NCBI GenBank assembly: GCA_001769385.1
Contig: MEPB01000048.1
Span: 21,548-85,547, forward strand
Direction of reading: 5' to 3'
Source: Bacteroidetes bacterium RIFCSPLOWO2_12_FULL_35_15
GTDB taxonomy: Bacteria > Bacteroidota > Bacteroidia > 2-12-FULL-35-15
Length of the DNA stretch: 64,000 bases
Shown here: positions 2,573-57,358 of the stretch, piece after piece
Layout of the letters: each line of letters starts with the position of its first letter
Numbering within the stretch: position 1 is the first letter of the stretch
Translations under genes and position numbers: made by a program
The notes under the pieces: model-generated
Database searches by the model: none
Seen by the model: the letters and a program-made list of their open reading frames with translations, nothing else
What the model was told of the DNA's origin: nothing

Positions 2573-3340
2573 TTAGTGTGACAATTTTTTAGAAATTTTT
2601 TTGAAACGCATTTGTAACACCCCCCAAAAAGCTTCTTTGAAAATTCCTTTGCTCATTTTTGATGAGCCTTCAACTCTGTCGGTAAATGTTATGGGAACCT
2701 CCACTAGTTTGAATCCGAGTTTGTAGGCAGTATATTTCATTTCAATTTGAAAGGCATAGCCTACAAATTTAATTTCGTCAAAATCGATTTGTTCAAGTAC
2801 TTTACGTTTATAACATTTAAATCCTGCTGTAGTGTCATAAATGGGTACCCATAATACCATTCGAACATAAACGGATGCGTAATAGGACATCAAAACGCGA
2901 CCTTTGGGCCAATTTTCGATCTTGCCATCTTTTACATAGCGCGATCCGATCGCAACATCGGCACCATTTACACAAGCTTCACGTAAACGAATTAAATCAT
3001 TTGGGTTGTGTGAAAAATCGCAGTCCATTTCAAAAATATACTCATAGCTGCGTTGTAATGCCCATTTAAAACCATGAATATAGGCCGTTCCCAATCCTAA
3101 TTTGCCTTTACGTTCTTCAATAAATAATTTACCCGGAAACTCCTGCATCAAATTTTTTACAATCACGGCAGTGCCATCCGGAGAACCATCATCTATAATT
3201 AACAGGTGAAAGGGATGAGACAAAGAAAATACTTTGCGAACCATTCGCTCTATATTTTCTTTTTCGTTGTAGGTTGGTATAATGACTAAACTATCGCTCA
3301 CAAACTGTTTTTTGAAAAACGAAGATAACGCTCTATTCAA
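2573..3340 (-). CDS. GT2 glycosyltransferase, polyprenyl-phosphate mannosyltransferase-like
   Basis: IIPTYNEKENIERMV...LLIIDDGSPDGT is a GT2 DXD-type signature. Size is ~255 aa. Confidence 0.75.
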   Translation of the reverse strand: MNRALSSFFKKQFVSDSLVIIPTYNEKENIERMVRKVFSLSHPFHLLIIDDGSPDGTAVIVKNLMQEFPGKLFIEERKGKLGLGTAYIHGFKWALQRSYEYIFEMDCDFSHNPNDLIRLREACVNGADVAIGSRYVKDGKIENWPKGRVLMSYYASVYVRMVLWVPIYDTTAGFKCYKRKVLEQIDFDEIKFVGYAFQIEMKYTAYKLGFKLVEVPITFTDRVEGSSKMSKGIFKEAFWGVLQMRFKKISKKLSH

Positions 3341-3492
3341 TAATTACCAAAGTTTTTAGGTTTTTTGGCGAATTTTCTGCACTAATTAGGTATTGTTATA
3401 AATTAAGCGGTATTAACTATACAGTTTGATGAGTAATAAAATTTCATTTTATACCATTCTTTATTTTTAAGTTTGTATTAAACTCCATTCAA

Positions 3493-5636: not shown

Positions 5637-7529
5637 TTAATGAGCTCCTTTTTTTATTTCTTCCACAATTGAAGGGTCCAGCAAAGTAGAGGTATCGCCC
5701 AGATTTGATAAATCGCCTTCAGCTATTTTGCGCAGGATACGTCTCATGATTTTTCCGCTTCGTGTTTTTGGGAGGCCTTGTACTACTTGAATTTTATCAG
5801 GTTTTGCAATTGCTCCCATGTTTTTTGTTACGGTTTCAATTATTTCTTTTTTTAAGGCATCAGCATCTTTTCGTTCATGTTCACAAATGACAAACGCATA
5901 AATGCCCCAGCCTTTTATTTCATGAGGGAATCCAACCACTGCAGATTCAACAATATCAGGATGCTGATCAATTGCATTTTCTATTTCTGAGGTTCCTAAT
6001 AAATGTCCTGAAACTTTTATTACATCGTCAACCCGACCTGATATATGGTAATATCCCTCTTCATCGCGTTTGCATGCATCACCTGTGAAATAATATCCTT
6101 TAAATGTTTCAAAATAAGTTTCTTTGCAACGTTTATGATTTTGATAAGTTGTACGAATGATACCCGGCCATGGAAATTTAAAACACAATCTTCCTTCCAC
6201 ATTATTTCCCTGTAATTCTTTTCCCTGTTCATCAAGCAAAATAGGTTGTACTCCCGGTAAAGGAAGTGTTGCAAAACCAGGTTTTGTTTTAGTGATTCCG
6301 GCTAATGGAGAGATCATGATTCCACCGGTTTCTGTTTGCCACCATGTATCCACGATCGGACATTTCTTTTTTCCAATATTTTCGTTATACCAGTTCCATG
6401 CAAATTCATTTATTGGTTCGCCAACAGTTCCCAAAACCTTTAGCGAATCTAATTTATAAGGCTTTACAAAATCCAGACCAAGCGCTTCAAGGGATCTTAT
6501 TGCAGTTGGAGCGGTATAAAAAATAGCTACCTGATGTTTATCAATAACTTGCCAGAATCTTCCAGCATCAGGATAAGTGGGGATTCCTTCAAACATTAAT
6601 GTGGTGCCTCCTGCCAGAAGTGGTCCGTAAACTAAATAGGAGTGACCGGTGATCCAGCCCACATCAGCCGTACACCAAAATATATCGCCATCATTGTATT
6701 GAAAAACATTACGGAATGTATAATCAACAAAAGTCATATAGCCCGCTATTGTATGCACAACTCCTTTTGGTTTTCCGGTGGAGCCGGAAGTGTATAATAT
6801 GAAAAGCATATCTTCTGCATCCATTATTTCGGCAGGACAATCAGCGGAACTGTTTTTAATTTCATCCTGCCACCAAACATCACGTCCGCTTTCCATCTTT
6901 ACTTCGGTATTTATATGTTTATATACAATCACTTTTTTAACCGAAGGACAAGTTAATAAGGCTTCATCAATAACATTTTTCAATGGAATTTCTTTTGCTC
7001 CACGATACGCACCATCTGAAGTAATGACCACGTTACAATCGGCATCATGAATTCTATCAGAAAGTGATTTAAAAGAAAAACCACCAAATACCACTGAGTG
7101 AATAGCTCCGATTCTCGCACATGCCAAAACCGCTATTGTTAATTCAGGAATCATGGGCATATAAATACAAATGCGGTCGCCTTTTTTTGCACCATTTTTT
7201 TTCAGCACATTTGCAAATCGACATACTTCTGAATGAAGTTCTTTATACGTGAATTTTCGTACTTCATCTTCTGGATTATTAGGTTCCCAAATGAGTGCAG
7301 TTTGATTTCCTCTTTTTTCAAGATGGCGATCAAGGCAGTTTTCGGTGATATTGAGTTGTCCGCCAATGAACCATTTTATACTTGGCTCATCAAAATTCCA
7401 CTCCAACACGTTATCCCATTTTTTATGCCAGGTAAATTGTTCAGCTTGCTCTGCCCAAAAGGCTTCAGGAGTTTCAACACTACGTTTGTATTCCTGCTGA
7501 TATTGCTCAAAAGATGTAATACGGTTCAT
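5637..7529 (-). CDS. acs: Acetyl-CoA synthetase (acetate--CoA ligase)
   Basis: Full-length 630 aa product. Motifs YTSGSTGKPKGV, WWQTETGG and a C-terminal PKTRSGKIMRR are canonical Acs. Confidence 0.95.
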   Translation of the reverse strand: MNRITSFEQYQQEYKRSVETPEAFWAEQAEQFTWHKKWDNVLEWNFDEPSIKWFIGGQLNITENCLDRHLEKRGNQTALIWEPNNPEDEVRKFTYKELHSEVCRFANVLKKNGAKKGDRICIYMPMIPELTIAVLACARIGAIHSVVFGGFSFKSLSDRIHDADCNVVITSDGAYRGAKEIPLKNVIDEALLTCPSVKKVIVYKHINTEVKMESGRDVWWQDEIKNSSADCPAEIMDAEDMLFILYTSGSTGKPKGVVHTIAGYMTFVDYTFRNVFQYNDGDIFWCTADVGWITGHSYLVYGPLLAGGTTLMFEGIPTYPDAGRFWQVIDKHQVAIFYTAPTAIRSLEALGLDFVKPYKLDSLKVLGTVGEPINEFAWNWYNENIGKKKCPIVDTWWQTETGGIMISPLAGITKTKPGFATLPLPGVQPILLDEQGKELQGNNVEGRLCFKFPWPGIIRTTYQNHKRCKETYFETFKGYYFTGDACKRDEEGYYHISGRVDDVIKVSGHLLGTSEIENAIDQHPDIVESAVVGFPHEIKGWGIYAFVICEHERKDADALKKEIIETVTKNMGAIAKPDKIQVVQGLPKTRSGKIMRRILRKIAEGDLSNLGDTSTLLDPSIVEEIKKGAH

Positions 7530-7649
7530 AAAATTGAAAGATTAAATTATGTAGGTTGATAAAGATATGAATTCAAAAATAAGAAAAGAAAATGGCTTTA
7601 AAAATTAGCAGTGATCACAATCAAGAAAACAAATGATTTGAAAATGGGA

Positions 7650-8540
7650 GTTGTAGTATGGTACGCAGATTTAGCGGATTGTTTAAGATTTAAAATGATT
7701 TTTTGTAGGTGATTGTATAAGGATATTCTGTGTTGAAGCACTTTGTAGTATGGTACGCAGATTTAGGGGAGAGTTTAAGATTTAAAAATGATTTTTGTTG
7801 CTGATTATTATAGGATATTCCGTGTTGAAGTACTTTGTGGTATGGTACGCAGATTTAGCGGATTGTTTAAGATTTAAAAATGATTTTTGTTGCTGATTGT
7901 TCTAGGATATTCCGTGTTGAAGTACTTTGTAGTGTGGAACGCAGATTTAGGGGAGAGTTTAAGATTTAAAATGATTTTTTGTAGGTGATTGTATAAGGAT
8001 ATTCTGTGTTGAAGTACTTTGTAGTATGGTACGCAGATTTAGCGGAGAGTTTAAGATTTAAAAATGATTTTTGTTGCTGATTATTATAGGATATTCCGTG
8101 TTGTACTTTGTGGTATGGTACGCAGATTTCGCGGATAGTTTAGGATTTTAAAATGATTTTTGTTGATGATTGTTATATGATTTCTGTATTGAAGATTGTT
8201 ATAAGATATTCCGTGTTGAAATACTTTGTAGTATGGTACGCAGATTTCGCGGATAGTTTAAGATTTAAAAATGATTTCTGTATTGAAGATTGTTATAAGA
8301 TATTCCGTGTTGAAATACTTTGTAGTATGGTACGGAGATTTCGCGGATAGTTTAAGATTTAAAAATGATTTTTGTTGCTGATTGTTATATGATATTATGT
8401 GTTGAAGATTGTTATAGGATATACGTTATTGAAATTCGCATTTTGAATGATCTTAATTTATTATAAAGTCCTAACTAACATTTAAATCTTATCATTTTTT
8501 TATCATAAAAATCTTAATAAATCTGCGTCCGATCGAATCA
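7650..8540. repeat. Tandem array of ~8 direct repeats (unit ~92 bp, one 118-bp variant) with a terminal inverted partial copy
   Basis: Copies of the unit containing tatggtacgcagattt start near 7657, 7749, 7841, 7934, 8025, 8114, 8232 and 8326. An inverted partial copy aaaaatcttaataaatctgcgtcc lies at ~8505-8530. The 65-aa ORF at 8153-8350 is repeat-derived. Confidence 0.85.
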
Positions 8541-21345: not shown

Positions 21346-21603
21346 AAAGAGATGTTCTGCCTATGCTTGCATGAAATTCTGAATGCACATTTATTTCCTG
21401 CCTCGCTTTTAATTCGCTGCGCATTTTTTATTTCAAAGATAAAATATTTCTAATGAAAAGACCTGTCAGGTTTTCAAAACCTGACAGGTCTGGTATCACA
21501 ATGCTTTAGTTCTTCTCTCTGCGTGGAGAGCCTAAGTGGATGGGCTACTCAAAGATAAATTCCGTTTTCTAAAGTTTGAAGATTTAACTCAGTTGGTTGA
21601 TTA

Positions 21604-42455: not shown

Positions 42456-45400
42456 ATGAAAAAAATAATACTAATTAACTGTCTTATATTCTTAAGTATT
42501 ATAAAAGCATTTGCACAACCCGCTAATGACGGTTGTGCCGGAGCTCAATCTGTTACACCTGATGGAACCTGTGTTGCAGGGACTACTGTAGATGCTACTG
42601 ATGGCTGGACGGGAAGTGTCGGTTGTCAATCCGGAGCTAGTCATCCGGAGGTTTGGTACTCTTTTGTTTCCACTGGAACGCAAGCAAGTTTCACAATTAC
42701 AAATGGTACAATGACTGGAAATATTGAGTTGGTTTTAGTTGAATCCTCTGGTCCTTGTGCCGGGCTGGCTTTAACAGGATCCTCTTGCGGAGCTTCTCCT
42801 TTAAGTGCTTCGTTTAATGGTTTGGTGATCGGTACAACCTATTATTATACCATTTCTTCTTCTACTTCTTCGCTTGGAACTTTTACAACTTGTGTAACCA
42901 CATCCAATCCTCCTCCGGTCTCCGGACAAGATTGTGGAAATGCTGCAATATTATGTAATAACAATCCTTTTTCACAGGGTACCTCAAGTGCTGGTGCAGG
43001 AGCTGTTTTTGGAAATGCTTCTAATGAAAATTTATCTGCATTGGGTTGTTTGGCATCTGATGAGCGTCAATCAAAATGGTATAAATTTACCATAGGTTGT
43101 ACAGGTACCATAGAGTTTTTAGTGGATCCTAATGATAATGCAAATGACTATGATTGGGCTGTTTATGATATTACTACTTCCGGTTGTGCATTAACTCCAG
43201 GTGGCGCAGCTGCAGGAGGAGCAACCCAGGTAGCTTGTAATTACAGTGGTTGTCCTGGAAATACAGGGATTCTGAATCCTTTAACGGATCCATGTACGAT
43301 AACTAATTATACAACATGCGAAGCGGCCGGAGGGCCCGGTAATTGCAGTGGTGCTGATATTGGTCAGTTTAGTATTGCACCTCCGACTCTTACTGCTGGC
43401 CATACGTATGCATTAATTATTGATAACTTTTCTCTTTCAAATGCAGGATTCGCATTCTCTTGGTTAAGTGGTGGAACAGCAACTATTGGACCTGATGCAA
43501 ATTATACGTATGCAAATCCATCCTGTGGCGTGTTTAATTTTACTAAATCGTGTGCTACAATTAATTCAACTTTTCTTTGGACCTTTGGTGATGGAGGAAC
43601 TTCAACTTTACAAAATCCTTCACATACTTATGTAACCGGTGGAACTTACATAATTTCTTTACAAGTTACGGACGCTCTTGGTTGTATTAATACAAGCAGC
43701 CAAACAGTTGCTTTTTTAACACCGCTAGCAACAGCTACTCCGGCATCACAAAGTATTTGTTCGGGTACATCTACTTCTATTGCATTAAGTAGTACTGTAA
43801 TCGGAACAACTTATGCCTGGACTGTTAGCGAAACTGGTGTTTCAGGAGCCAGTGCCGGAAGCGGTTCTTCTATTGCCCAGACATTGACTTTAACAGGAGC
43901 TGTTGCCGGAACTGCAACATATACGATTACTCCTACAGCTGCCGGTTGTGTTGGTGCAACAATCACGGTTACAATTACTGTCAACCCTAGTGCTACCATC
44001 GTACTTTCTTCTGCTGTTGGTACAAATGCGCAAACAGTTTGTGCATTAGCAGCAATTGCAAATATTACTTATACTGTTGGCGGAGCTGGAACTGGTGCAG
44101 GTGTTACCGGTTTGCCTGCTGGCGTTACCGGAGCATTTGCAGGAACGACATTCACTATCAGCGGTACACCAACAGCAACCGGAACTTTTAACTATGTTGT
44201 TACAACTACCGGAACCTGTACTCAGGCAACAGCAACCGGAACTATTATCGTGAATCCCAATGCGACAATTACACTAACTTCAGCTGCAGCTACAACAGCT
44301 CAGACGCTTTGTGTAAGTACAGCAATTACAAATATTACATACACAGTTGGTGGAGGTGGAACAGGTGCAGGGGTAACAGGTTTACCGGCTGGCGTAACAG
44401 GTTCTTTTGCAGGCGGTGTTTTCACAATCAGCGGCACTCCTACTGCAACAGGCACGTTTAATTACACGGTAACAACAACAGGAAGTTGCACGCAGGCAAC
44501 AGCACTCGGAACAATAACGGTAAACCCGAATGCCAGCATAACTTTAACATCCGCAGTAGGTTCTAATGCACAAACTATTTGCTTAACATCACCTGTCACA
44601 ACTATTACCTATACAGTTGGTGGTGGTGGAACCGGAGCTGGTGTAACAGGTTTGCCGGCAGGTGTATCAGGTTCTTTTGCAGGAAGTACATTTACGATCA
44701 GCGGAACTCCAACTGCAACAGGTACATTTAACTATGTAGTAACAACTACCGGAACCTGTACACAGGTTACCGCATTAGGGACTATCATTGTTAATCCGAA
44801 TGCGACAATTACCTTAACGTCTGCAATAGCTACTACAGCACAGACTCTTTGTGTAAGTACAGCAATTACAAATATTACATATACCATTGGTGGAGGTGGA
44901 ACAGGTGCAGGGGTAACAGGTTTGCCGGCCGGGGTAACAGGTTCTTATGCAGGTGGAATTTTCACAATCAGCGGCACTCCTACCGCAACAGGCACTTTTA
45001 ATTATACAGTAACAACAACGGGAACCTGTACCCAGGCAACAGCGCTGGGAACAATAACGGTAACCCCGAATGCAACCATAACTTTAACATCCGCAGTAGG
45101 TACCAATGCACAAACTATTTGCTTAACATCACCTGTCACAACGATTACCTATACGGTTGGTGGTGGTGGAACCGGTGCAGGTGTGACAGGTTTACCTGCA
45201 GGTGTAACGGGTTCTTTTGCCGGAAGTACATTCACGATCAGCGGAACACCAACAGCAACAGGTACATTTAACTATGTAGTTACAACTACCGGAACCTGTA
45301 CGCAGGTTACCGCATTAGGGACTATCATTGTTAATCCGAATGCGACAATTACCTTAACGTCTGCAATAGCTACTACAGCGCAGACTCTTTGTGTAAGTAC

Positions 45401-48400
45401 AGCAATTACAACTATTACTTACTCCATTGGTGGAAGCGGAACAGGGGCAGGTGTAACAGGTTTACCCGCGGGCGTAACAGGTTCTTTTGCCGGAGGAGTA
45501 TTTACAATAAGTGGAACTCCAACAGCATCAGGCACATTTAATTACACCGTAACAACAACGGGTACTTGCACACAAGCAACTGCTACAGGCAGCATAACAG
45601 TTAATCCATTACCTGCCATAACTTCAATCCCTTTTACAAATGAAACTACTTGTGGTGCTAGTGATGGAACAATAACAATTAATGCAACAGGTACCGGACT
45701 GACATATTCTATTAATGGTGGAACTTCATTTGTTGGAACTAATCTTTTTACAGGATTAGCAGCAGGAAGTTACACGATTGTTGTTGAAAATGCAGCAGGT
45801 TGTACAGTCAATGGTGGTGTAATATCTATCAGCAGCGCTGGTGCTCCTGCAACGCCTGCCGCTAATGCAGCCCCAAATCCTCTGTGTGAAGGTTCAGCTT
45901 TAACATTAACAGTTGTCGCCCCGGTTGGAGGCGTAACTTATAACTGGTCAGGTCCGGGAGGATATTCAGCAACAGGATCATCTGTTTCTATTCCAGGTGT
46001 TACAACCGCTATGACCGGTGTTTATACTGTAACCGGGAGTATTGGCTCTTGTGTGAGTCCGGGAGGATCAGTAACAGTAACTGTGGATCCAAATGCTGCC
46101 ATTGCTTTAACTTCAGCAGTAGGAACAGATATACAAACATGGTGTCTAACAAATACCATCACTACCATTAGTTATACAATTACCGATGGCGGCACGGGAG
46201 CTGGCGTAACAGGATTGCCAATAGGAGTAACAGGCTCTTATGCAGGAGGCATATTTACGATCAGTGGCACACCAACAGAAACCGGAACATTTAATTATAC
46301 AGTGACTACAACCGGAACTTGTACGCAAGCAGTGGCAAGCGGAACAATAACTATCAATCCCAATGCAATTATTACGTTGACATCTGCAGCCGGAACAGAT
46401 TCACAAATTGAATGTATCAACACTGCAATTACCGCCATAACCTATTCCGTAACCGGTGGTGGAGCAGGTGCCGGAGTTACAGGTTTACCGACAGGTGTAA
46501 CAGGTTCTTTTGCAGGAAGCATATTCACTATCAGCGGAATACCAACAGCTACCGGTACGTTTAATTATACAGTCACCACAACAGGAACCTGTACACAAAC
46601 AACAGCAACTGGAAGTATCATTGTAAACCCGGATGCAGCTATCACTTTAACATCAGCTGTTGGAACAGATGCACAAACATGGTGTCTTACTGATGCAGTA
46701 ACTACTATAACCTATTCTATAACAGGTGGTGGAACTGGTGCTGGTATAACTGGTTTGCCGGCAGGGGTGACTGGTTCTTTTTCAGGAGGGGTTTTTACAA
46801 TTAGCGGAACACCAACAGTAACCGGTGTTTTTAATTATCTGGTAACAACAACCGGATCCTGCACTCAAGCAAGTGCAACCGGAAGCATCACCATAAATTC
46901 AAATGCCATAATTACATTAACATCAGTAGCGGGAAGTGATATACAAACGTCCTGTATCAATGTCGCGATCACTCCAATAACATACTCTGTTTCAGGTGGT
47001 GGTGCCGGTGCCGGAGTAACAGGTTTACCAGCAGGTGTGGCAGGTTCTTTTTCAGGAGGGATATTCACTATCAGCGGAACTCCAACAGCAACAGGCATAT
47101 TTAACTACACGGTAACTACTACCGGTACTTGCACTCAGACAACAGCAACCGGTACCATAAATGTAAATCCGGATGCCATTATTGCTTTAACCTCAGCGGT
47201 TGGAACAGAAGCACAAACAGTATGTATTAATATACCAATCACTACTATTACATATTCAGTAACAGGAGGCGGAACAGGAGCCGGTGTAACAGGTTTGCCT
47301 ATAGGCATAACCGGATCATTTGCTGGGGGTGTGTTTACTATTTTTGGGACACCAACAGCATCAGGCACATTTAATTATAGCGTAACAACAACCGGTACGT
47401 GTAGCCAAGCAACTGCACTTGGAACAATAATAGTGGACAGTGATGCAGCTATTGCTTTAACATCTGTTGCAGGAACTGACGCACAAACAGCATGTATAAA
47501 TACAGCCATCACTTCAATCACATATTCTATAACAGGGAGTGGAACAAATGCCGGAGTAACCGGATTACCTGCAGGAGTAACAGGTTCATTGGCTGCAGGG
47601 GTCTTTACTATAAATGGAACACCTACTGCAACCGGTACATTTAATTATACCATAACAACAACAGGAACCTGTATCCAAACTACAGTATTGGGAAGTATGG
47701 TCATTAATCCGGATGCTGTTATTGCTTTAACATCGGCAGCCGGAACCAATTCACAAACGCTATGTATCAATACAGCGATTTCTGTAATTACATATTCCAT
47801 AACAGACGGTGGAACAGGAGCTGGTGTAACTGGTTTGCCGGCAGGTGTAACAGGATCATTTGCTGCAGGTGTGTTTACAATTTCCGGAACACCATCCACA
47901 TCAGGAACATTTAATTATACGGTAACAACAACAGGTACTTGTCTCCAAGCAACAGCAACCGGAAGCATTATTATTAATGCATTACCGATCATCGATACTA
48001 CTAACATTGTAATTACTCCGGCTACCTGTGGACTATCGGATGGATCTATAACCGGCATCACCGCTTCAGGTGCAACAGTATTAGCCTACACATGGAATGG
48101 AGCAGCAAGCGCTACAACTGATCTGATTAATGTTCCGGTTGGTGCATACACATTGGTGGCGATGGATATAAATAATTGCTCATCTTCAATGGGGCCGGTT
48201 CAAATAATAAACCCCGGAGCCCCTGCTGCTCCAGCCGCTCCGAGTCCTGCGGCTTATTGCCAAGGCGCTGCAATTGCCGATTTAACGGCAACGGGCACAG
48301 GAGGAACATTAACATGGTATGCAGATGCAGGCTTAATAGCTCAGGTAGGTACAGGTAGTCCTTTTACAACAGGCGTTACAAGTACCAGCACTTTTTATGT

Positions 48401-50168
48401 TACAGAAACGGTAAGTGGCTGCCAGAGTTCAGCAACAGTGGTAACTATTACGGTTAATCCTCCGCCATCCGCTCCAACAGCTCCAAGCCCGGCATCTTAT
48501 TGTCAGGGTGATACTATTGCTGATTTGACGGCAACAGGTACAGGTGGAACATTCACCTGGTATTCAGATGCCGGTTTAATAACTCAAGTAGGTACGGGTA
48601 GCCCTTTTGCATCAGGAGCTACAAGTACCGGTACTTTTTATGTAACAGAAACGGTAAGTGGTTGTCAGAGTGCGGCAACAACGGTAACTATTACAGTTAA
48701 TCCTCCTCCATCAGCACCAACTGCTCCAAGTCCTTCTGCTTATTGCCAAGGTACTGCCATTGCTGATTTAACAGCCTCCGGAACAGGGGGAACATTTACA
48801 TGGTATTCGAATCCAGGCTTAACAACTCAGGTAGGAACAGGTAGTCCTTTTGCATCCGGAGCAACAAATACAACTACTTTTTATGTAACAGAAACTTTAG
48901 GTGGATGTCAGGGTCCTGCAACAGCAGTAACTGTTACGTTTACTCCTGCCCCATTGGCTCCAACAGCTCCAAGCCCTGCAGCGTATTGCCAGGGTGCAGC
49001 TATTGCAGATTTAACAGCAACAGGTACAGGAGGCACATTCACCTGGTATTCAGATTCCGGTCTAACCACACAAGTGGGAACAGGAAGCCCTTTTGCCTCC
49101 GGAGCCACAAGTACCGGCACTTTTTATGTAACAGAAACAATAACCGGGTGTCAGAGCTTAGCAACAGCAGTAACCATTACCGTTAATTCGCCTCCATCAT
49201 CACCAACTGCTCCAAGTCCTGCAGCGTATTGTCAGGGTGATGCTATTGCGAATTTAACAGCGACAGGAACAGGCGGAACATTCACATGGTATTCAAATCC
49301 CGGCTTGACCACTCAAGTAGGGACAGGAAGTTCTTTTGCATCCGGAGCCACCAGTACCAGCATTTTTTATGTTACACAAACCATATCAGGATGTCCGAGT
49401 TCAGCAACTGCAGTGACTATTACAATTAATAATATACCAACTACTCCAACCGCAGGAAGCAACAGCCCAATATGCGAGGGTTCTGCATTAAATTTAACTT
49501 CTGATACAGTAACAGGAGCAACCTATAGCTGGACAGGTCCAAACGGATTCAATTCTCCTGCTGAGGATCCGGTTGTTAGTACTAGCGCTACTGTGGCGAT
49601 GTCTGGAACATATTCAGTTACTGTAACAGTAGCAGGTTGTACCAGTCTGGCAGGAACAACTTCCGTAATTGTGAATCCGCTACCTATTGCCAGTGCAGGA
49701 GTTGATGCAATGATCCTATCCGGTAGTTCCATAACATTAACGGCCAGCGGTGGCGGGTCGTATTTATGGAGTACAGGTGATACTGACACAACTATTACAG
49801 TTTCACCTACTGTTACTACAGATTATTGCGTAACGGTGATGGATGTAAATTCCTGTTCAGATAGTGATTGTGTTCGGGTAATTGTTGAAATACCTTGCGG
49901 AACATTATTTGTACCGCTTGCATTTTCACCAAATGGTGATAATGAAAATGATGTGTTGTCTGTTTATGGAGATTGTATTACGTATCTTGAATTTGTAATT
50001 TTTGATCGTTGGGGAGAAAAAGTATTTGAAACAAGCGACCAAACAATAAGTTGGGACGGTACCTACAAAGGAAAAAAATTGGATACTGCTGTTTTTGTTT
50101 ATTATTTGAAGGCAACAGTAAAAGGGGAATCAATAAACAAACACGGTAATATTACATTAACGAAATAA
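42456..50168 (+). CDS. Giant SprB-like cell-surface repeat adhesin with gliding-motility-associated (T9SS type-B) C-terminal domain
   Basis: 2570 aa with a signal peptide. SprB repeats (TCGASDGTITINATG; TCGLSDGSITGITASG). About 20 tandem ~90-aa T/G-rich Ig-like repeats and 5 x ~82-aa repeats. The C-terminus FSPNGDNENDVLSVYG...FDRWGEKVF is a type-B CTD. It is followed by sprF/porP. Confidence 0.8.
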   Translation: MKKIILINCLIFLSIIKAFAQPANDGCAGAQSVTPDGTCVAGTTVDATDGWTGSVGCQSGASHPEVWYSFVSTGTQASFTITNGTMTGNIELVLVESSGPCAGLALTGSSCGASPLSASFNGLVIGTTYYYTISSSTSSLGTFTTCVTTSNPPPVSGQDCGNAAILCNNNPFSQGTSSAGAGAVFGNASNENLSALGCLASDERQSKWYKFTIGCTGTIEFLVDPNDNANDYDWAVYDITTSGCALTPGGAAAGGATQVACNYSGCPGNTGILNPLTDPCTITNYTTCEAAGGPGNCSGADIGQFSIAPPTLTAGHTYALIIDNFSLSNAGFAFSWLSGGTATIGPDANYTYANPSCGVFNFTKSCATINSTFLWTFGDGGTSTLQNPSHTYVTGGTYIISLQVTDALGCINTSSQTVAFLTPLATATPASQSICSGTSTSIALSSTVIGTTYAWTVSETGVSGASAGSGSSIAQTLTLTGAVAGTATYTITPTAAGCVGATITVTITVNPSATIVLSSAVGTNAQTVCALAAIANITYTVGGAGTGAGVTGLPAGVTGAFAGTTFTISGTPTATGTFNYVVTTTGTCTQATATGTIIVNPNATITLTSAAATTAQTLCVSTAITNITYTVGGGGTGAGVTGLPAGVTGSFAGGVFTISGTPTATGTFNYTVTTTGSCTQATALGTITVNPNASITLTSAVGSNAQTICLTSPVTTITYTVGGGGTGAGVTGLPAGVSGSFAGSTFTISGTPTATGTFNYVVTTTGTCTQVTALGTIIVNPNATITLTSAIATTAQTLCVSTAITNITYTIGGGGTGAGVTGLPAGVTGSYAGGIFTISGTPTATGTFNYTVTTTGTCTQATALGTITVTPNATITLTSAVGTNAQTICLTSPVTTITYTVGGGGTGAGVTGLPAGVTGSFAGSTFTISGTPTATGTFNYVVTTTGTCTQVTALGTIIVNPNATITLTSAIATTAQTLCVSTAITTITYSIGGSGTGAGVTGLPAGVTGSFAGGVFTISGTPTASGTFNYTVTTTGTCTQATATGSITVNPLPAITSIPFTNETTCGASDGTITINATGTGLTYSINGGTSFVGTNLFTGLAAGSYTIVVENAAGCTVNGGVISISSAGAPATPAANAAPNPLCEGSALTLTVVAPVGGVTYNWSGPGGYSATGSSVSIPGVTTAMTGVYTVTGSIGSCVSPGGSVTVTVDPNAAIALTSAVGTDIQTWCLTNTITTISYTITDGGTGAGVTGLPIGVTGSYAGGIFTISGTPTETGTFNYTVTTTGTCTQAVASGTITINPNAIITLTSAAGTDSQIECINTAITAITYSVTGGGAGAGVTGLPTGVTGSFAGSIFTISGIPTATGTFNYTVTTTGTCTQTTATGSIIVNPDAAITLTSAVGTDAQTWCLTDAVTTITYSITGGGTGAGITGLPAGVTGSFSGGVFTISGTPTVTGVFNYLVTTTGSCTQASATGSITINSNAIITLTSVAGSDIQTSCINVAITPITYSVSGGGAGAGVTGLPAGVAGSFSGGIFTISGTPTATGIFNYTVTTTGTCTQTTATGTINVNPDAIIALTSAVGTEAQTVCINIPITTITYSVTGGGTGAGVTGLPIGITGSFAGGVFTIFGTPTASGTFNYSVTTTGTCSQATALGTIIVDSDAAIALTSVAGTDAQTACINTAITSITYSITGSGTNAGVTGLPAGVTGSLAAGVFTINGTPTATGTFNYTITTTGTCIQTTVLGSMVINPDAVIALTSAAGTNSQTLCINTAISVITYSITDGGTGAGVTGLPAGVTGSFAAGVFTISGTPSTSGTFNYTVTTTGTCLQATATGSIIINALPIIDTTNIVITPATCGLSDGSITGITASGATVLAYTWNGAASATTDLINVPVGAYTLVAMDINNCSSSMGPVQIINPGAPAAPAAPSPAAYCQGAAIADLTATGTGGTLTWYADAGLIAQVGTGSPFTTGVTSTSTFYVTETVSGCQSSATVVTITVNPPPSAPTAPSPASYCQGDTIADLTATGTGGTFTWYSDAGLITQVGTGSPFASGATSTGTFYVTETVSGCQSAATTVTITVNPPPSAPTAPSPSAYCQGTAIADLTASGTGGTFTWYSNPGLTTQVGTGSPFASGATNTTTFYVTETLGGCQGPATAVTVTFTPAPLAPTAPSPAAYCQGAAIADLTATGTGGTFTWYSDSGLTTQVGTGSPFASGATSTGTFYVTETITGCQSLATAVTITVNSPPSSPTAPSPAAYCQGDAIANLTATGTGGTFTWYSNPGLTTQVGTGSSFASGATSTSIFYVTQTISGCPSSATAVTITINNIPTTPTAGSNSPICEGSALNLTSDTVTGATYSWTGPNGFNSPAEDPVVSTSATVAMSGTYSVTVTVAGCTSLAGTTSVIVNPLPIASAGVDAMILSGSSITLTASGGGSYLWSTGDTDTTITVSPTVTTDYCVTVMDVNSCSDSDCVRVIVEIPCGTLFVPLAFSPNGDNENDVLSVYGDCITYLEFVIFDRWGEKVFETSDQTISWDGTYKGKKLDTAVFVYYLKATVKGESINKHGNITLTK

Positions 50169-50305: not shown

Positions 50306-51373
50306 ATGAAAACAAAAAACGAAATGGCTGTCCTGACAATTAAAAAGGCATTTTTTATTGCTGTATTAGTAGGATTAGTTAATTATGTTCCTGCAATAGC
50401 ACAGGATATTCACTTTTCGCAATTTGATGAAACCCCATTGCAATTGAATCCTGCAAATGCAGCTGTGCGGCACGAAATATCTGTAATTGCCAATTATAAA
50501 AATCAGTGGCAAAGTGTTGGGGCGCCTTATAAAACATTTGCATTTTCAGGAGAAGTTAAATTATTAAAAAAGAAAAAACAAAACCTTGGATTAGGAATTG
50601 ATTTTTTTAATGATAAAGCCGGTGATTCACAAATGGGAACTACTCAGGCAAATTTATCTCTTTCAGGAATTATTCCGCTTAATTCTAAAAGTCTTATTTC
50701 CGGTGGATTAATGTGTGGCTTTGCACAACGTACCATGACAAGCGGAAAACTTAGTTGGGGAAAACAATATAACGGAATGGACTATGATGCAAGTTTGCCA
50801 ACCGGTGAAATAAGTTCTGTTAGTAATTATACCTTTCTTGATCTTGGTGCCGGAGTACAATATAGCTATGGTACACATGAAATGTATATCTCTGCCAATG
50901 ATGCAAGAAAGATAAATATTGGAGTGTCTGTTTTTCACCCGCATCAACCGGCCTATTCCTATTATGGAGATAAGTCGCAAAGATTGCACATGAAACTAAT
51001 ATTTCATGGTGATGCAGCATTGGGAATAAAAAACACAAACCTGATATTAAAACCTTCTTATATTATTTTCATACAAGGAGCAACAAAAGAAATAACACCC
51101 GGTATGACCTTCCAGTATGTTTTACAGGAGTCCTCAAAATATACGGGCATCAAAAAAGCTTCTGCTGTTTCTCTTGGTGCTTATTATCGAACACAAGATG
51201 CATTTATAGCAATAGTAAAGTATGAATATTCAAATTATGCAGTCGGATTTAGTTACGATATTAATCTTTCAAAATTAAAAACAGTTTCTTCTGCTCGTGG
51301 CGGATTCGAAATTTCTTTACGATTTATTGCCCCTGCTGCTTTTGGTAAAAGCACTTCAAGAGCAAGGCTATAA
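50306..51373 (+). CDS. sprF: PorP/SprF family type IX secretion system membrane protein
   Basis: N-terminus AQDIHFSQFDETPLQLNPANA is the PorP/SprF signature. ~355 aa beta-barrel. Positioned directly after the type-B CTD adhesin. Confidence 0.8.
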   Translation: MKTKNEMAVLTIKKAFFIAVLVGLVNYVPAIAQDIHFSQFDETPLQLNPANAAVRHEISVIANYKNQWQSVGAPYKTFAFSGEVKLLKKKKQNLGLGIDFFNDKAGDSQMGTTQANLSLSGIIPLNSKSLISGGLMCGFAQRTMTSGKLSWGKQYNGMDYDASLPTGEISSVSNYTFLDLGAGVQYSYGTHEMYISANDARKINIGVSVFHPHQPAYSYYGDKSQRLHMKLIFHGDAALGIKNTNLILKPSYIIFIQGATKEITPGMTFQYVLQESSKYTGIKKASAVSLGAYYRTQDAFIAIVKYEYSNYAVGFSYDINLSKLKTVSSARGGFEISLRFIAPAAFGKSTSRARL

Positions 51374-51880
51374 ATTAGTAATAGTGTGACTATTTTATTG
51401 ATTTCTTTTTGAAATGAAGTTCGGCAGGATGCCGGTTAATAAAAGCGGAGCGGGACGCTCTGCTTAACAGAGAGCATAAAAAAAGCTTCTGCTGTTTCTC
51501 TTGGTGCTTATTATCGAACACAAGATGCATTTATAGCAATAGTCAAGTATGAATATTCAAATTATGCAGTCGGATTTAGTTATGATATTAATCTTTCAAA
51601 ATTAAAAACAGTTTCTTCTGCTCGTGGCGGATTCGAAGTTTCTTTACGATTTATTGCCCCCGCTGCTTTTGGTAAAAGCACTTCAAGAGCAAGGCTATAA
51701 ATTAGTAATTGTGAACTGTTTTATTGATTTCTTTTTGAAATGAAGTTTAGCAGGATGCCGGTTAACAGAGCAAGGCTATAAATTAGTAATAGTGTGAACT
51801 GTTTTATTGATTCTTTTTGAAATGAAGTTCGGCAGGATGCCGGTTAATAAAAGCGGAGCGGGACGCTCTGCTTAACAGAG
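51152..51880 (+). repeat. Direct tandem duplication (2.3 copies) of the sprF 3' end plus downstream hairpin region
   Basis: Copy A is 51152-51476, copy B is 51477-51770 (~97% identical with a 25-bp internal deletion) and partial copy C is 51771-51880. All junctions are at ttaacagag. Confidence 0.85.
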
Positions 51881-52004: not shown

Positions 52005-55000
52005 TCATTTCAGCAAAGTAACAATGCCTTTATAATAATGTACATTCTTTTTGATGTCAGTAACATTAATTGAATAAACATATACATCTACCTCTGCCAT
52101 TTCGCTTCCTCCTTTTGTTTTACCGGTCCAGGGTTTATTGATATCATCGGTTTTATAAACGAGATTTCCCCAGCGATCATAGATGCTCATCTCATATTTC
52201 TCAATAAAAATACCTCTTCCTGAAAAACTATCATTCAACCCGTTTCCATTGGGTGTAAATGCACTGGGAATGTAAAACATAAAATCAGGTTCGATAGTGA
52301 TGTTTTGATAGGCCGTATCCCAACAATTGTATTGGGTGGAGGTGATCAATGTAATGATATAGGTTCCGGTATCCGCATACGTATGAGGTGTTGGATCAGC
52401 ATTGGAAAATGTTGTCAGATCTCCCAGATCCCAGGACCAAAAATTTGCTCCGGTCGATAAATTTGTGAACGTAATGATCGGAGTAAGAATGGTCGTACTT
52501 GTTGGCTGAACATTAAAATCTGCAACCGGATTCGGATATACCACGATGTAATTATTTTGTGTGAAGGTGCTTATACAGCCTTTATCAGAGGTAACTGTTA
52601 AAGTCACACCGGATGCTATCGGTACAAAAACAGAATCATTGGTATAACAATTTGTTGGAGACGGAGAATTACTGCTTGCGGCCTGTCAGCAATGTAACGG
52701 TATATATTCCTGCCGCAGCAAAGTTATGCGAAGGGCTTTGAGTGGTATTGACAGGTGTGCCATCACCGAAATCCCAATTCCAGGAAGTGATCGTTCCTGA
52801 AACGCTGCTTGAGTTGTCGGTAAATTGGGTGGCATTACCGGCGCAAACACTTGTATTTGTGAAATCAGCAACCGGCATGGAATAGATTGTAATTGTAGCC
52901 ACCGTGGTATCGGGGCAACCCAGCGATGTGGAATGAGTAATAAGCGTGACCGTATAATTTCCTGCTGTTGCATATAAATGTGCCGGACTCCAGCTTGTTG
53001 TATTGATGGCTGTACCATCACCAAAATCCCATGACCAATTTGCCATACTCCCCATTGCAGGATCGGTAGATGTGTTTGTAAATAGTGCAGAATCAAGTAA
53101 GCAGGTATTACTGAACGTGAATGTTGATGTAGGAGCATCAAAAGAAGTTACAGAAATAGTCGCAACATTGGAACATCCGTCACTGGTTGTGGCCAACAAA
53201 GTAACAGTATAAATACCTGCACTGGAATAATAATTAGTAGGATCTTGTGCAGTACTTGTTGCTCCGCTACCGCCAAATGTCCATAAATAGCCGGCTAGCG
53301 AAGTAGAAGCATCCACCGAAGAGGTATTGATAAAAGGCATGGTGTCGCCTGCGCATACATTTCCAAAGGTAAAGTTTGCAGTAGGAATATAATACACCTG
53401 AACAGGTTTGCTGATTGTAGTGGTGCAACCAAAACTATTACCTGCTATCAACGTAGCATTATACATTCCTGCTGCAGCATAGGTATGCGAAGGATTTTGA
53501 GTATTATCTAAAGGTGTGATATCACCGAAATCCCAATTCCAGGAAGTGATCGTTCCGGAGCTAGTGCTTGAATTGTCGGTAAATTGGGTGATATTGCCTG
53601 CACAAACACTTGTGCTGTTAAAATCCGCAAGAGGAGCAGGGTTAACAGTCACGGTTATCTGATCAGTTGCCGTACATCCATTTGCATCGGTAATGGTTAC
53701 CGTATAAGTTCCTGTTGCAGCAGCGGTAATGGATTGACTTGTTTCAGTGGTGTTCCAACTGTAAGAGCTGGAATTATTGGCTGTAAGAAGTACGTTACCT
53801 CCCGGACAAAATGCAAGGGGACCATTTGGAGTGATGGAGGCGCTGGCAACATTTACGGTAATGGTAATACTGTTTTGTGAGGTGCAACCATATCGGTCTG
53901 TTTCGGTAACACTATATACGGTAGTCACCAAAGGAGAAGTAGTAAAAGTTGCTGCGCTTGAGGTAAATCCCGCAGGGACCGATGTCCAGCTGTATGTATA
54001 AGGTTGGGATCCTAAAATCGTAGTTGCCGAAACCGTTACACTTTGTCCTAAGCAGATTGCTGTTGCAGATGGTGTAATAGTAGTTACAGGGCAAAGATTA
54101 ACTTCAATAACAGAAAGAGAATTATAACTGTTGCAATCCAGGTCGTTCCATGTTCCGGCAGGATAAATTTGTGTACATTCTTCATCTCCGGAATTATTAG
54201 GCTCACCAGCGGCCCAGTTTTCGTAACCTAAGGGACTACCATCATACCATGAGAAGGGACCACCGGGGAATGATCGTCCATAGCCGATCCATATAACCTG
54301 ACTTGCATAGCCCTGATTATTTAAAGCATTCATCAGATCCGTATTTTCAGTACCTGATTGAACAGAGATCAGATCGGCACCGAATGTTTGGGCATACGTT
54401 TCTGCTGCAGGACCCGACATAAACTGAGGATTAATAAAATATAAACTACAGGAATTGTCCATGTTCACCAGTTCTGTATTACCCGCACCTATTAATGTAG
54501 AACGAATAAGCGAAAGATTACAATTATTAGGAGGAGGTAAAGGAGAGCATCCAACAGCATCAGTACCTGCAACGCAAGGGCACAGATCATTGTAATTAGG
54601 TACCCCATCGCCATCGCTATCTGCTGTTCCATTTGCCGTAACATTGGCCACTAACAATAAACCATAAGGACCACCTCCGTTATAAACCAATACATCCACA
54701 TAATTAATTCCCGGAACCCAGGGACCAACTAAGGTCATGTTTAGTTGTGTTCCTGCTGCAAAGCCTCCTCCGCTAAAGCCGGTACTATTGCCATTTATAA
54801 ATACATCTGATATGGTATTGTCAACATATCCCGATAAGTTCAAAGTAAAACTACCGGGAGTGGATACACTATTGCCATTGCAATCGGGTGGCAAGTTGAT
54901 TGTTAATCTGAAATAGCGATATCCCAGCTGGGCGTCAGGATCCGTGCAAGGTACATTGGATTCAGAGATCCAGTTCCCATTATTGATCGGAGGAGGTAAG

Positions 55001-55293
55001 GTGGCAGGGTCTATCCATGCTCCTACCGCACAAGCGTTTGAAATTAAAGCAGATCCATACGTTTGAGTCAATGGTCCGGGTGGCACACCAAATATTACAG
55101 GTGATACCAACCAAAGCGGATCGATGGATCCTTGTGGTCCTTGCCCGGTAGCTAAAGTTATAGGATTAGGAAATGTTTGCGCCTGACCATTAACGAAGAA
55201 AGTTAATGCAAACACATTCATTAAAAGAAAAACCTTTTTTAATTTTAAATACCTTAGGCCATTCAGTTTAGTGATAGACATTTTATTTGTCAA
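52005..55293 (-). pseudogene. C-type-lectin/PKD/TSP3-repeat protein with gliding-motility-associated (type-B) C-terminal domain, interrupted by a frameshift near 52665-52685
   Basis: ORF 52669-55293 (signal peptide; DSDGDGVPNYND; C-type lectin GEPNNSGDEECTQIYPAGTWNDLDCN; multiple PKD WNWDFGDG) continues in another frame (..ASSNSPSPTNC..VTLTVTSDKGCIST) into ORF 52005-52607, which holds a PKD and the type-B CTD FTPNGNGLNDSF...YDRWGNLVY. Confidence 0.6.
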
Positions 55294-55594: not shown

Positions 55595-57358
55595 ATGAAA
55601 AGTAAACTATTTATTGTTTTAGTTTTTCTGGGGGAGATTTTGATCGGACAAGAAAAAGTTGAGAAACTTAAAAAGCAAATCACTACCTACACCTATCTCA
55701 ACCACTACGATTCCGCACAAACAATAGTGCTTGACTATCTTGACCAAAAAGAGCTTTCACCTTTAGAAATATTTTACGGACATTTTTTGTTTGCCGATAT
55801 TTTAAAATCTTCGAACAAACCAATTGAGGCAATTGAAAAGTTTAAGGAATGTAAAAAATATCTCGATGCAATTGCAGAAAATAAAAACTACTTGTCACTT
55901 ATTGATGGCGACATTGCTGAATGTTATTTCAATATGTCACAGTATGAAGATGCGAAAAGATATGCCTTGTTGTCGCTGCAAACCAGTCCTGATTCTAGCC
56001 TTAGAGGAAGCGGGCATGCTGTAAATTATATGATATTGGGTTATGCCAATTACATTTCAAAAAATTATTCGTTGGCACTGGAAAATTATAACAATGCGAT
56101 GAAACGATATAACGCTTATGGTGCGTCATGCGAATTGCCCTTGTGCTATATGAAAATTGCCAAGGTGTATAATTCGATGGGAAATGAAAAACTTGCAGAA
56201 GAAAACATAAACAAAGCTATTTCAATAAGTGATTCCTGTGAGATTGAAAATTATAAACTGCTTTCAAAACGGACCTTGTTTGATATTTATAAAGAAAATA
56301 AAAATTACGAAAAAGCATTAATGCAATTGGAGGAAATAAATAACCTGGTTGCTAAACTGGAATACGCGAAACAAGGCAAGGTAATGAGTGAAATGGAGGT
56401 GAAATACAAAACTTTACTTTCTCAAAAAGAAATAGAAAATCTTAAAAAAATAAATGAGGCAAATAAAAAAACACTTGCAGAACAAGAGAGGGTACTTTTC
56501 ATTGTAATAGTTGCAATATTAATTTTATGTGTTTTCCTTTTTTTTCTGGTACGAATTTCCAATCAACGAAAAAAAGCAAAGCAGGAACTCGAATTGCTGA
56601 ATGTCTCACTTGAGCAAAAAGTAATTAAAAGAACGAAAGAGTTAGCTGAAGACATACTTGTTCGTAGAGAATTAGAAAAGCAATTGAGCGAAAAAATAAA
56701 TGAAATGGAAACGCTCATTTCAAAGCTTTCTCATGATCTGCGCTCTCCGCTTTTAAGTGTTCTTGGATTGATCAATGTTGCTGAAAATGATCCTGAATCC
56801 GACAAGTCAATATATTTAGATAAAATAAAAGAATCGATAAAAAGACTCGATCATATTATCATTGACATAACCAATACGATATATGTTTCTACTATGGAGC
56901 AGAATCCGGAAGTGATTCAGTTTGAAAAGATGATCAACGAAACAATAGCGGTTTTGCAATTTAGAGAAAATTTTGAAAAAATAAAGATCAGCATCCTCAT
57001 TAATCAGACAAAGGATTTTTATTCCGATCCGAAATTTTTACAATCTATCATTCAGAATCTGCTTGAAAATGCAGTAAAATATAGCAACTGCCTCATTGAG
57101 CCGTGCATTGAAATAGTAGTTCAGGAAGATGCCAAAGGAGTACTACTAAAAATAACAGATAATGGAACGGGGATCAGTCCTGAATTTCATGATAAAATAT
57201 TCGACATGTTTTTCCGTGGAACAGAGATTTCGAAAGGTACGGGACTTGGATTATACATTGTAAAAAAAGCTGTTGAGAAGCTCCATGGAAAAATTGAATT
57301 GCAAAGCGAAAAAGGAAAAGGAACTATCTTTACAATTCATCTTCCAAATCTGATTTAG
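55595..57358 (+). CDS. Sensor histidine kinase with N-terminal TPR repeats and one TM helix
   Basis: H-box LSHDLRSPL, N/G boxes NLLENAVKYS, DNGTGI and GTGLGLYIV. TPR-like N-terminal half. Confidence 0.8.
   Translation: MKSKLFIVLVFLGEILIGQEKVEKLKKQITTYTYLNHYDSAQTIVLDYLDQKELSPLEIFYGHFLFADILKSSNKPIEAIEKFKECKKYLDAIAENKNYLSLIDGDIAECYFNMSQYEDAKRYALLSLQTSPDSSLRGSGHAVNYMILGYANYISKNYSLALENYNNAMKRYNAYGASCELPLCYMKIAKVYNSMGNEKLAEENINKAISISDSCEIENYKLLSKRTLFDIYKENKNYEKALMQLEEINNLVAKLEYAKQGKVMSEMEVKYKTLLSQKEIENLKKINEANKKTLAEQERVLFIVIVAILILCVFLFFLVRISNQRKKAKQELELLNVSLEQKVIKRTKELAEDILVRRELEKQLSEKINEMETLISKLSHDLRSPLLSVLGLINVAENDPESDKSIYLDKIKESIKRLDHIIIDITNTIYVSTMEQNPEVIQFEKMINETIAVLQFRENFEKIKISILINQTKDFYSDPKFLQSIIQNLLENAVKYSNCLIEPCIEIVVQEDAKGVLLKITDNGTGISPEFHDKIFDMFFRGTEISKGTGLGLYIVKKAVEKLHGKIELQSEKGKGTIFTIHLPNLI

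Follow-up and report, generated by a model that had tools for sequence, protein, structure and literature searches.

The window considered here is a stretch of 64,000 nt (positions 21,548 to 85,547 of contig MEPB01000048.1) from the metagenome-assembled genome (MAG) 'Bacteroidetes bacterium RIFCSPLOWO2_12_FULL_35_15', and its minus strand carries a broken gene for a large protein with a CTLD (C-type lectin-like domain). The locus consists of an open reading frame (ORF) of 874 aa at 52669–55293, counted from the first TTG, and a second one of 200 aa at 52005–52607, both of them where an earlier note, made from the letters of this DNA, had placed them. As deposited, the upstream ORF starts at ATG 55281 and is OFY85712.1 (870 aa; identity to the window ORF is 100% across the compared aa 36–400), and the 200-aa ORF corresponds residue for residue to OFY85711.1; the two lie on a 317-kb contig of the MAG and are both annotated as hypothetical protein. 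The peptides quoted in the earlier note, GEPNNSGDEECTQIYPAGTWNDLDCN (aa 363–388), DSDGDGVPNYND (aa 225–236, window 54586–54621) and two WNWDFGDG segments, were all found in the ORF translation.

Using Pfam and NCBIfam profiles, we detected in the upstream ORF a Lectin_C domain (PF00059; aa 296–391, 48.7 bits, gathering score 22.6, E=1.5e-12) and four PKD_4 stretches above the gathering score (PKD domain, PF18911/PF00801; 193.7 bits, E=4.6e-58). The 200-aa ORF contains one further PKD_4 stretch (37 bits) and a type B C-terminal sorting domain (CTD) of the T9SS (type IX secretion system), recognized by both CHU_C (PF13585; 58.8 bits, gathering score 27, E=6e-16) and TIGR04131, the type B sorting domain profile (47.6 bits, cut-off 35). 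The architecture proposed in the earlier note, namely a CTLD, a thrombospondin type 3 (TSP3)-like loop, at least four PKD domains and a gliding-associated CTD, stands, with Lectin_C far above its threshold and both CTD profiles above their curated cut-offs. The duplicated WNWDFGDG segments reported there fall in a direct repeat (52682–52871 and 53441–53630; 80% identity, spacing 759 nt) and mark the start of an old, diverged second copy (77–80% identity) of a three-PKD unit, which continues in the orthologues. Based on two intact orthologues, the complete protein consists, in this order, of a predicted Sec signal peptide, a jelly-roll domain, the TSP3-like loop, the CTLD, two Ig-like domains, ten PKD domains and the type B CTD. 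The mature start, QTFPNP, aligns with an (A)Q-x-FPNP motif conserved in all relatives. The conserved N-terminal domain of ~180 aa, which has no Pfam model and which the earlier note had missed, is the signature of the family. The coordinates are given in Table 1.

Table 1. Features of the lectin locus and its convergent neighbours, in window coordinates.
Feature	Position	Strand	Basis
Predicted Sec signal peptide MSITKLNGLRYLKLKKVFLLMNVFALTFFVNGQA, followed by Q	55180–55281	-	By inspection: basic n-region, hydrophobic core, A-x-A-like GQA
Family-specific N-terminal beta-sandwich (jelly-roll) domain, ~180 aa, without Pfam model	54634–55179	-	Family alignment and AlphaFold 2 (AF2) model
Single TSP type-3-like Ca-binding loop DSDGDGVPNYNDLCPC	54574–54621	-	Sub-threshold Pfam TSP_3; match to 5wtl
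CTLD	54091–54528	-	Lectin_C, 48.7 bits
Predicted Ca site-2 ligands	EPN 54196–54204; Glu371 54181–54183; WND 54142–54150	-	Motif positions
Two Ig-like domains (ILGSxPYTYxW...TDRYGC type)	53644–54090	-	Weak Ig_7 (18.6 bits) and weak K319L-like_PKD; kept in relatives
PKD domains 1–3, one three-PKD unit	52882–53643	-	PKD_4; boundaries by motif positions
PKD domain 4, start of diverged second three-PKD unit, cut by the deletion after ...AAGIYTVTLLTG	52681–52881	-	Direct repeat
Deletion junction	52680–52681	-	blastn and pairwise alignments to L010 and L016
Last PKD domain	52290–52532	-	PKD_4, 37 bits, aa 27–104 of the 200-aa ORF
Type B T9SS C-terminal sorting domain	52008–52289	-	CHU_C and TIGR04131
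5' fragment of the broken gene, OFY85712.1, 870 aa	52669–55281	-	ORF list; premature TAA 52669–52671
3' fragment, out of frame with the 5' part, including the OFY85711.1 ORF (52005–52607)	52005–52680	-	Three-frame translation
PorP/SprF-family gene	50306–51373	+	PorP_SprF 131.5 bits, TIGR03519 165 bits
2570-aa ORF with six Ig_7, one PKD and a CHU_C type B CTD; G+C at codon position 2, 0.64	42456–50168	convergent with the lectin gene	Pfam

The best database match, P0001, shows 93% identity and has 1468 aa rather than ~1090; a cluster mate, P0122, has 1488 aa and ten PKD_4 domains. Comparison with orthologues, which the earlier note had proposed, yielded an intact frame in both, and the 3' fragment of the window aligns to their C-terminal ~228 aa with 92% aa identity. 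Their contigs (L010 for P0001 and L016 for P0122) are 91% identical to the window at the nucleotide level, and L016 has the same gene order, with a ferrochelatase, a 587-aa TPR histidine kinase and the lectin gene. The window aligns to positions 1546–6239 of L016 and then to 7440–8127, with ~1200 nt in between that lack a counterpart, and the alignment to L010 behaves likewise. On the left, homology ends at the GGC codon 52683–52681 (...TVTLLTG, against ...TVTLIAG in the orthologues), and on the right it begins at 52680. The simplest reading is that a single deletion of 1190 nt (L016 6250–7439; L010 ~3260–4460) occurred at 52680/52681, and an in-frame deletion followed by a 1-nt insertion would fit the same sequence equally well. 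The deletion begins ~190 nt into the second three-PKD copy and takes about five of the ten PKD domains, so that what is left in the window is three complete domains together with a cut-off fourth one, the end of the ninth and domain ten.

Since the length of the deletion is not a multiple of three (1190 mod 3 = 2), it throws translation out of frame, and a stop follows 11 nt past the junction. In three-frame translation, frame 1 terminates at TAA 52669–52671. The frame of the CTD opens at 52686, just after a TGA codon, and runs to the stop at 52005–52007. The frameshift that had been noted at ~52670 is real as a switch of frame, but it is not the small indel that the term implies. In P0122 and P0001, the Sec signal peptide and the CTD are on one polypeptide; in the window they are separated by the TAA, and the product loses its secretion and anchoring domain, as the earlier note had foreseen. 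A scan of genome contigs with the 874-aa ORF returned relatives of the PKD region only, at 47% identity or less, and no orthologue. Scans of JGI metagenomes gave no match for a strain-specific 29-mer left of the breakpoint or for a 35-mer conserved in all three orthologues. It is very probable that this locus once encoded a large cell-surface lectin/adhesin of an uncultured bacterium of the Bacteroidota in the Rifle aquifer and was inactivated recently, which makes it a young pseudogene, and OFY85712.1 and OFY85711.1 should be annotated as two pieces of one deletion-inactivated adhesin gene instead of two hypothetical proteins.

A break in a repetitive gene might also be produced during assembly, with the real gene intact (~1480 aa) and its PKD array collapsed or mis-joined. 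The Rifle aquifer data sets are short-read metagenomes assembled with IDBA-UD (PMC5701471), the sequence comes from such a short-read MAG, the PKD units are 77–80% identical, and contigs of other assemblies break or vary ~900 nt downstream, at a 327-nt duplication. However, the 33-nt string that spans the junction, ACATTGCTGACAGGCCGCAAGCAGTAATTCTCC, occurs exactly in five other public assemblies (L011–L015: ENA ERZ4903125, ERZ28563641, ERZ27254836, ERZ4903185 and Logan SRR2090162), whose record names follow at least three formats; one of these assemblies, L013, shows 100% identity to the window along 8 kb. It is therefore unlikely that the junction arose from a single error of sequencing or assembly. 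Repeats that are 77–80% identical are not normally collapsed, and the joined positions share no k-mer able to fuse a de Bruijn graph. Nor are these positions equivalent, as the middle of a strand of one PKD domain is joined to the loop after the FGDG of another. An artefact is thus quite unlikely, and the same holds for the sequencing error that the earlier note had listed among its options.

Surface adhesins are frequent targets of phase variation, and a reversible ON/OFF switch of the adhesin was another of these options. TRF detected no tandem-repeat array in the gene, and in reading the sequence around the junction we saw neither a homopolymer nor a short tandem repeat, which leaves phase variation unsupported. 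Moreover, a loss of 1190 nt cannot revert, and a single state is found in the six assemblies, so that we consider such a switch extremely unlikely. The remaining option, decay, is supported by an out-of-frame deletion that is evident against intact syntenic orthologues and has the same junction in all six assemblies.

Relative to L010, the 843 upstream codons give a dN/dS of 0.10 and the 225 downstream codons one of 0.115 (dS ~0.33); neither fragment has a further stop or indel, and no relaxed selection was seen. The low values on both sides of the junction indicate that purifying selection acted on both halves during almost the entire divergence. This suggests that, measured against the separation from the sister lineage, the deletion is recent, with the orphaned CTD part showing no sign of decay. 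A dN/dS of ~0.1 in both parts would also be compatible with a split gene that still functions, either as a CTD-less 870-aa lectin that is periplasmic or released, or through a +1 shift of ribosomes close to the stop, giving a shortened, CTD-bearing adhesin with five PKD domains. An in-frame version of the deletion would simply have a shorter stalk, in a family in which the length of the stalk differs widely (800 to 1500 aa). Nevertheless, low dN/dS is expected for any recent lesion, and no other family member was seen split in this way. The two frames overlap only at 52686–52672 (CAG GCC GCA AGC AGT in the CTD frame), where inspection found no slippery or RF2-like motif and where CAG-UAA-U offers no +1 re-pairing. 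Programmed +1 frameshifting was rejected given the lack of a slippery motif at the overlap, and continued function of the split gene is, in our judgement, very unlikely. Two considerations tell against a young pseudogene: the evidence consists of assemblies, whose read sets possibly overlap, and a minor intact allele in the population or a systematic artefact common to them is formally possible; and the unrelaxed dN/dS fits a still-functional gene as well as it fits a recent lesion.

The intact orthologue scores 48.5 bits with Lectin_C, and the residues of the expected binding site, E364-P365-N366, E371 and W382-N383-D384, are all present in the window protein. An alignment of 30 relatives shows no variation at P365, E371 and W382-N383-D384 and at least 90% conservation at E364 and N366. 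The five side-chain ligands of the predicted Ca site 2 are all present; E371, the Glu two residues before the loop Cys, is the putative counterpart of E193 in MBP-A. The best phmmer matches in the PDB are CTLDs of the mannose-receptor family, with the fourth carbohydrate-recognition domain (CRD) of MRC1 (1egg) at 3e-15. The AF2 model of aa 36–400 has a pLDDT of 83, with the CTLD part mostly at 80–94, and shows two helices and the expected strand order. In Foldseek it matches animal CRDs with E~1e-10, a TM-score (target) of 0.7–0.86 (about 0.8) and an rmsd of 1.6–2.7 Å, among them those of macrophage galactose lectin, CD23, CL-K1/CL-11, SP-D and MBP. The C2–C3 Cys pair that flanks the long loop is also recognizable by inspection (EEC...LDC).

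Most likely, members of this family act as Ca-dependent surface adhesins that bind mannose-type glycans and are exported by the T9SS. It weighs against this interpretation that it infers the sugar binding, its Ca dependence, the surface display and what the N-terminal domain does, and that, by inspection, no Cys stands at the canonical alpha1 and beta5 positions of the alpha1–beta5 disulfide of animal CTLDs. The motif AQTFGA stands where the Cys-bearing helix is, and the C-terminal Cys lies four residues later; alternative Cys are those in NNC (258), NSC (283) and NLC (401). The domain is thus no carbon copy of the animal domain and represents a divergent bacterial branch rather than a recent copy of an animal gene. 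A recent horizontal transfer from animals was rejected, as the family is broad, identity to animal CRDs is only 22–29% and the G+C content at third codon positions (GC3) is near that of the neighbours. The G+C excess of the lectin gene lies at codon position 2 (0.54), with a GC3 of 0.34 close to that of the neighbouring genes, and this combination also argues against recent transfer. A variable C-type lectin fold of the kind associated with diversity-generating retroelements (DGRs) was rejected as well, since the domain is a canonical PF00059 with invariant site residues instead. Pfam and NCBIfam scans of the lectin gene and three neighbours (the PorP/SprF gene, the histidine kinase and the 2570-aa ORF) gave no reverse-transcriptase match, although no search was aimed at DGRs.

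The earlier note regarded EPN/WND-type lectin domains as uncommon in bacteria, which proved overstated for this clade, where the combination is the rule. By Pfam annotation, ~100 of the 120 best database matches carry both Lectin_C and CHU_C, usually with PKD or Ig_7 repeats. Every named relative belongs to a MAG of uncultured Bacteroidota and bears the label 'PKD domain-containing', 'lectin-like' or 'gliding motility-associated-like' protein. Over the whole N-terminal module (aa 36–400), 79 of the other fetched sequences align, mostly with 50–62% identity; relatives are 50–67% identical over this module, and the orthologue P0122 is 96% identical. A motif scan found one to three CTLDs in 101 of the 121 fetched relatives, and 130 of the 131 CTLD copies contain EPN...WND. 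The sole non-EPN copy, the first CTLD of P0096, has QPD instead (SPSQPDNSGNEDC). In animal CRDs, replacing EPN by QPD is the classical way in which specificity changes from mannose-type to galactose-type, and the difference in P0096 suggests that specificity evolves within the family. Tandem modules of a CTLD and an Ig-like domain occur in many relatives (P0003, P0006, P0010, P0011 and others), with two CTLDs in 28 of the 121 and three in one, and some relatives have SprB repeats (PF13573) or Ig_7 arrays in place of the PKD stalk. Searches of the literature for C-type lectins of bacteria or of the T9SS yielded no paper that deals with this lectin family and no member studied experimentally.

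The N-terminal domain gave no match for residues 39–220 in Pfam, NCBIfam or PDB sequence searches. It has 29 invariant columns across the 30 relatives and matches only 88 clusters (50% identity) among 1.84 billion representatives, 50 of them below 1e-30. Its AF2 model is all-beta (pLDDT 87.7, pTM 0.87), and Foldseek returned weak matches (E~2e-4, TM 0.4–0.5) to CBM35 and to the jelly-roll with which GH2 and GH35 enzymes bind sugar. A role similar to that of a carbohydrate-binding module (CBM) is plausible on this model, and the domain is a candidate new domain family or CBM. Between this domain and the CTLD lies the stretch that had been called TSP3-like. The motif is present (DxDxDGxPxxxDxCPC in the window protein), the form D-x-D-x-D-G...D-x-C-x-C is nearly invariant across the family, and the stretch matches the TSP3 repeats of a Bacteroidota OmpA-family protein (5wtl; phmmer E=8e-9). 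On the other hand, Pfam TSP_3 (PF02412) gives 18 bits and does not reach its gathering score of 25. The stretch is best described as a putative bacterial calcium-loop linker between the two head domains and not as a certified TSP_3 member.

Cargo proteins with a type B CTD cross the outer membrane through the T9SS and are bound and kept on the surface by PorP-like proteins (PMC9143113, PMC12618676). A type B CTD requires a PorP/SprF shuttle, either a cognate or a shared 'orphan' one, and such cargo proteins are mostly predicted adhesins; a cognate porP/sprF-like gene directly downstream is common but not obligatory, and the orphan type B substrates of Flavobacterium johnsoniae share a distant shuttle (PMC12618676). 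No porP/sprF gene is found directly downstream of the lectin gene on its strand, and the sole PorP/SprF gene is convergent. Given that it directly follows the 2570-aa CHU_C gene, it is probably the shuttle of that protein, and the two probably form a textbook type B cargo/shuttle pair. The contigs of two family members (L017, L018) likewise lack a downstream porP/sprF gene; the lectin gene resembles the 'orphan' type B substrates with a distant shared shuttle.

The domain order, the type of secretion signal and the disruption come directly from the locus, and the mechanism proposed for the rest follows established T9SS biology. The intact protein would be exported by Sec, directed by its CTD through the T9SS translocon and retained on the surface by a PorP/SprF-like shuttle encoded elsewhere. 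There, the PKD/Ig stalk would present the jelly-roll and CTLD head, which may bind mannose/GlcNAc/glucose/fucose-type glycans in a Ca-dependent manner. The protein would likely serve to attach the cell to particles of polysaccharide, to exopolymers or to other cells, and possibly in gliding. In the Rifle allele, a single illegitimate deletion of 1190 nt would have removed about five PKD domains and introduced the early stop. The 870-aa product would keep its signal peptide and reach the periplasm but, lacking the CTD, could be neither secreted nor anchored; as the CTD remainder in turn lacks a signal peptide, the allele should be null.

Divergent from the lectin gene, a TPR-HisKA-HATPase sensor kinase of 587 aa is encoded at 55595–57358, an arrangement kept in L016, and this kinase could regulate the adhesin. 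On the other side, a direct duplication of 327 nt (51147–51386 = 51474–51713, 98% identity) comprises the last ~227 nt of the PorP/SprF ORF and its 3' flank, and is followed by an 82-nt tandem repeat in two copies at 51686–51847. Each repeat unit at 51147–51880 has small GC hairpins (GAGCGTCCCGCTC, CGGCATCCTGCCG) that resemble terminators. The region may be a real partial gene duplication or a spot that is ambiguous in assembly, as other assemblies break or differ there. The two adhesin genes (42456–50168 and 52669–55281) have a G+C content of 0.44 in a window of 0.357, with the excess at codon position 2 (0.54–0.64) and no rise in GC3. The position-2 excess reflects a composition rich in Thr, Ser, Ala, Gly and Pro and is thus no evidence of a foreign origin of these genes.

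The family is coherent and unstudied, with at least 50 strong clusters at 50% identity sharing the N-terminal domain, and it holds an animal-type EPN-Glu-WND site almost invariant in bacteria, mounted on T9SS cargo. It is possible, and we propose this only tentatively, that there is in uncultured Bacteroidota a dedicated class of T9SS type B surface adhesins whose distal, two-part glycan-binding head consists of an undescribed CBM-like jelly-roll, a calcium loop and a true EPN-type CTLD. This would be a testable prediction on glycan recognition by environmental Bacteroidota, for which the intact P0122 and P0001 are ready constructs. If Ca-dependent mannose-type binding were confirmed, these would be, to our knowledge, the first canonical C-type lectins from bacteria with a defined function, with a bearing on whether the calcium–sugar site of animal CRDs is ancient or was exchanged between kingdoms. 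In that case, the Rifle deletion allele could reflect the selected loss of an exposed adhesin, for example to evade a phage or grazer that makes use of it.

Compared with known systems, the closest proteins are uncharacterised Bacteroidota relatives (P0007, accession MBI2281291.1; P0001; P0122) that share the N-terminal module, the Ig-like/PKD stalk and the CHU_C type B CTD. The window copy differs from them in lacking 1190 nt, out of frame, and its subgroup has GYGRSFPGGPF where the relatives usually have a GFxDExxEGxF loop, and lacks two N-terminal cysteines. With animal Ca-dependent CRDs (mannose receptor CRD4, MBP, SP-D, DC-SIGN and CL-11), the CTLD shares the Lectin_C profile, the fold, the WIG motif, the EPN/Glu/WND set and the EEC...LDC pair; in contrast, its identity to them is 22–29%, the alpha1–beta5 disulfide is not at the usual positions, and the domain, whose binding is predicted, belongs to a bacterial T9SS cargo and not to a collectin or receptor. 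The TSP3 repeats of Bacteroidota OmpA-family proteins (5wtl) have the same D-x-D-x-D-G-x-P-x-x-D-x-C-P motif, whereas the loop in the window protein is a single-copy linker between two domains and not a repeat array. SprB and other type B cargo proteins have the same TIGR04131/CHU_C CTD and are likewise long repetitive adhesins, but, unlike SprB-like cargo with PorP/SprF shuttles, the lectin gene has no downstream porP/sprF on its strand. The lectin domain of F. johnsoniae RemA is of the rhamnose-binding SUEL type and not a CTLD. Compared by its description, RemA is likewise a large surface adhesin that the T9SS exports and that carries a lectin domain; it acts in gliding and differs in its type A CTD (PMC12618676). 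Set against these systems, the window copy is a broken member of an unstudied family with a domain mix that is normal for its group, and the break is that of an ordinary recent pseudogene, a recent out-of-frame deletion of 1.19 kb that is real in at least six assemblies.

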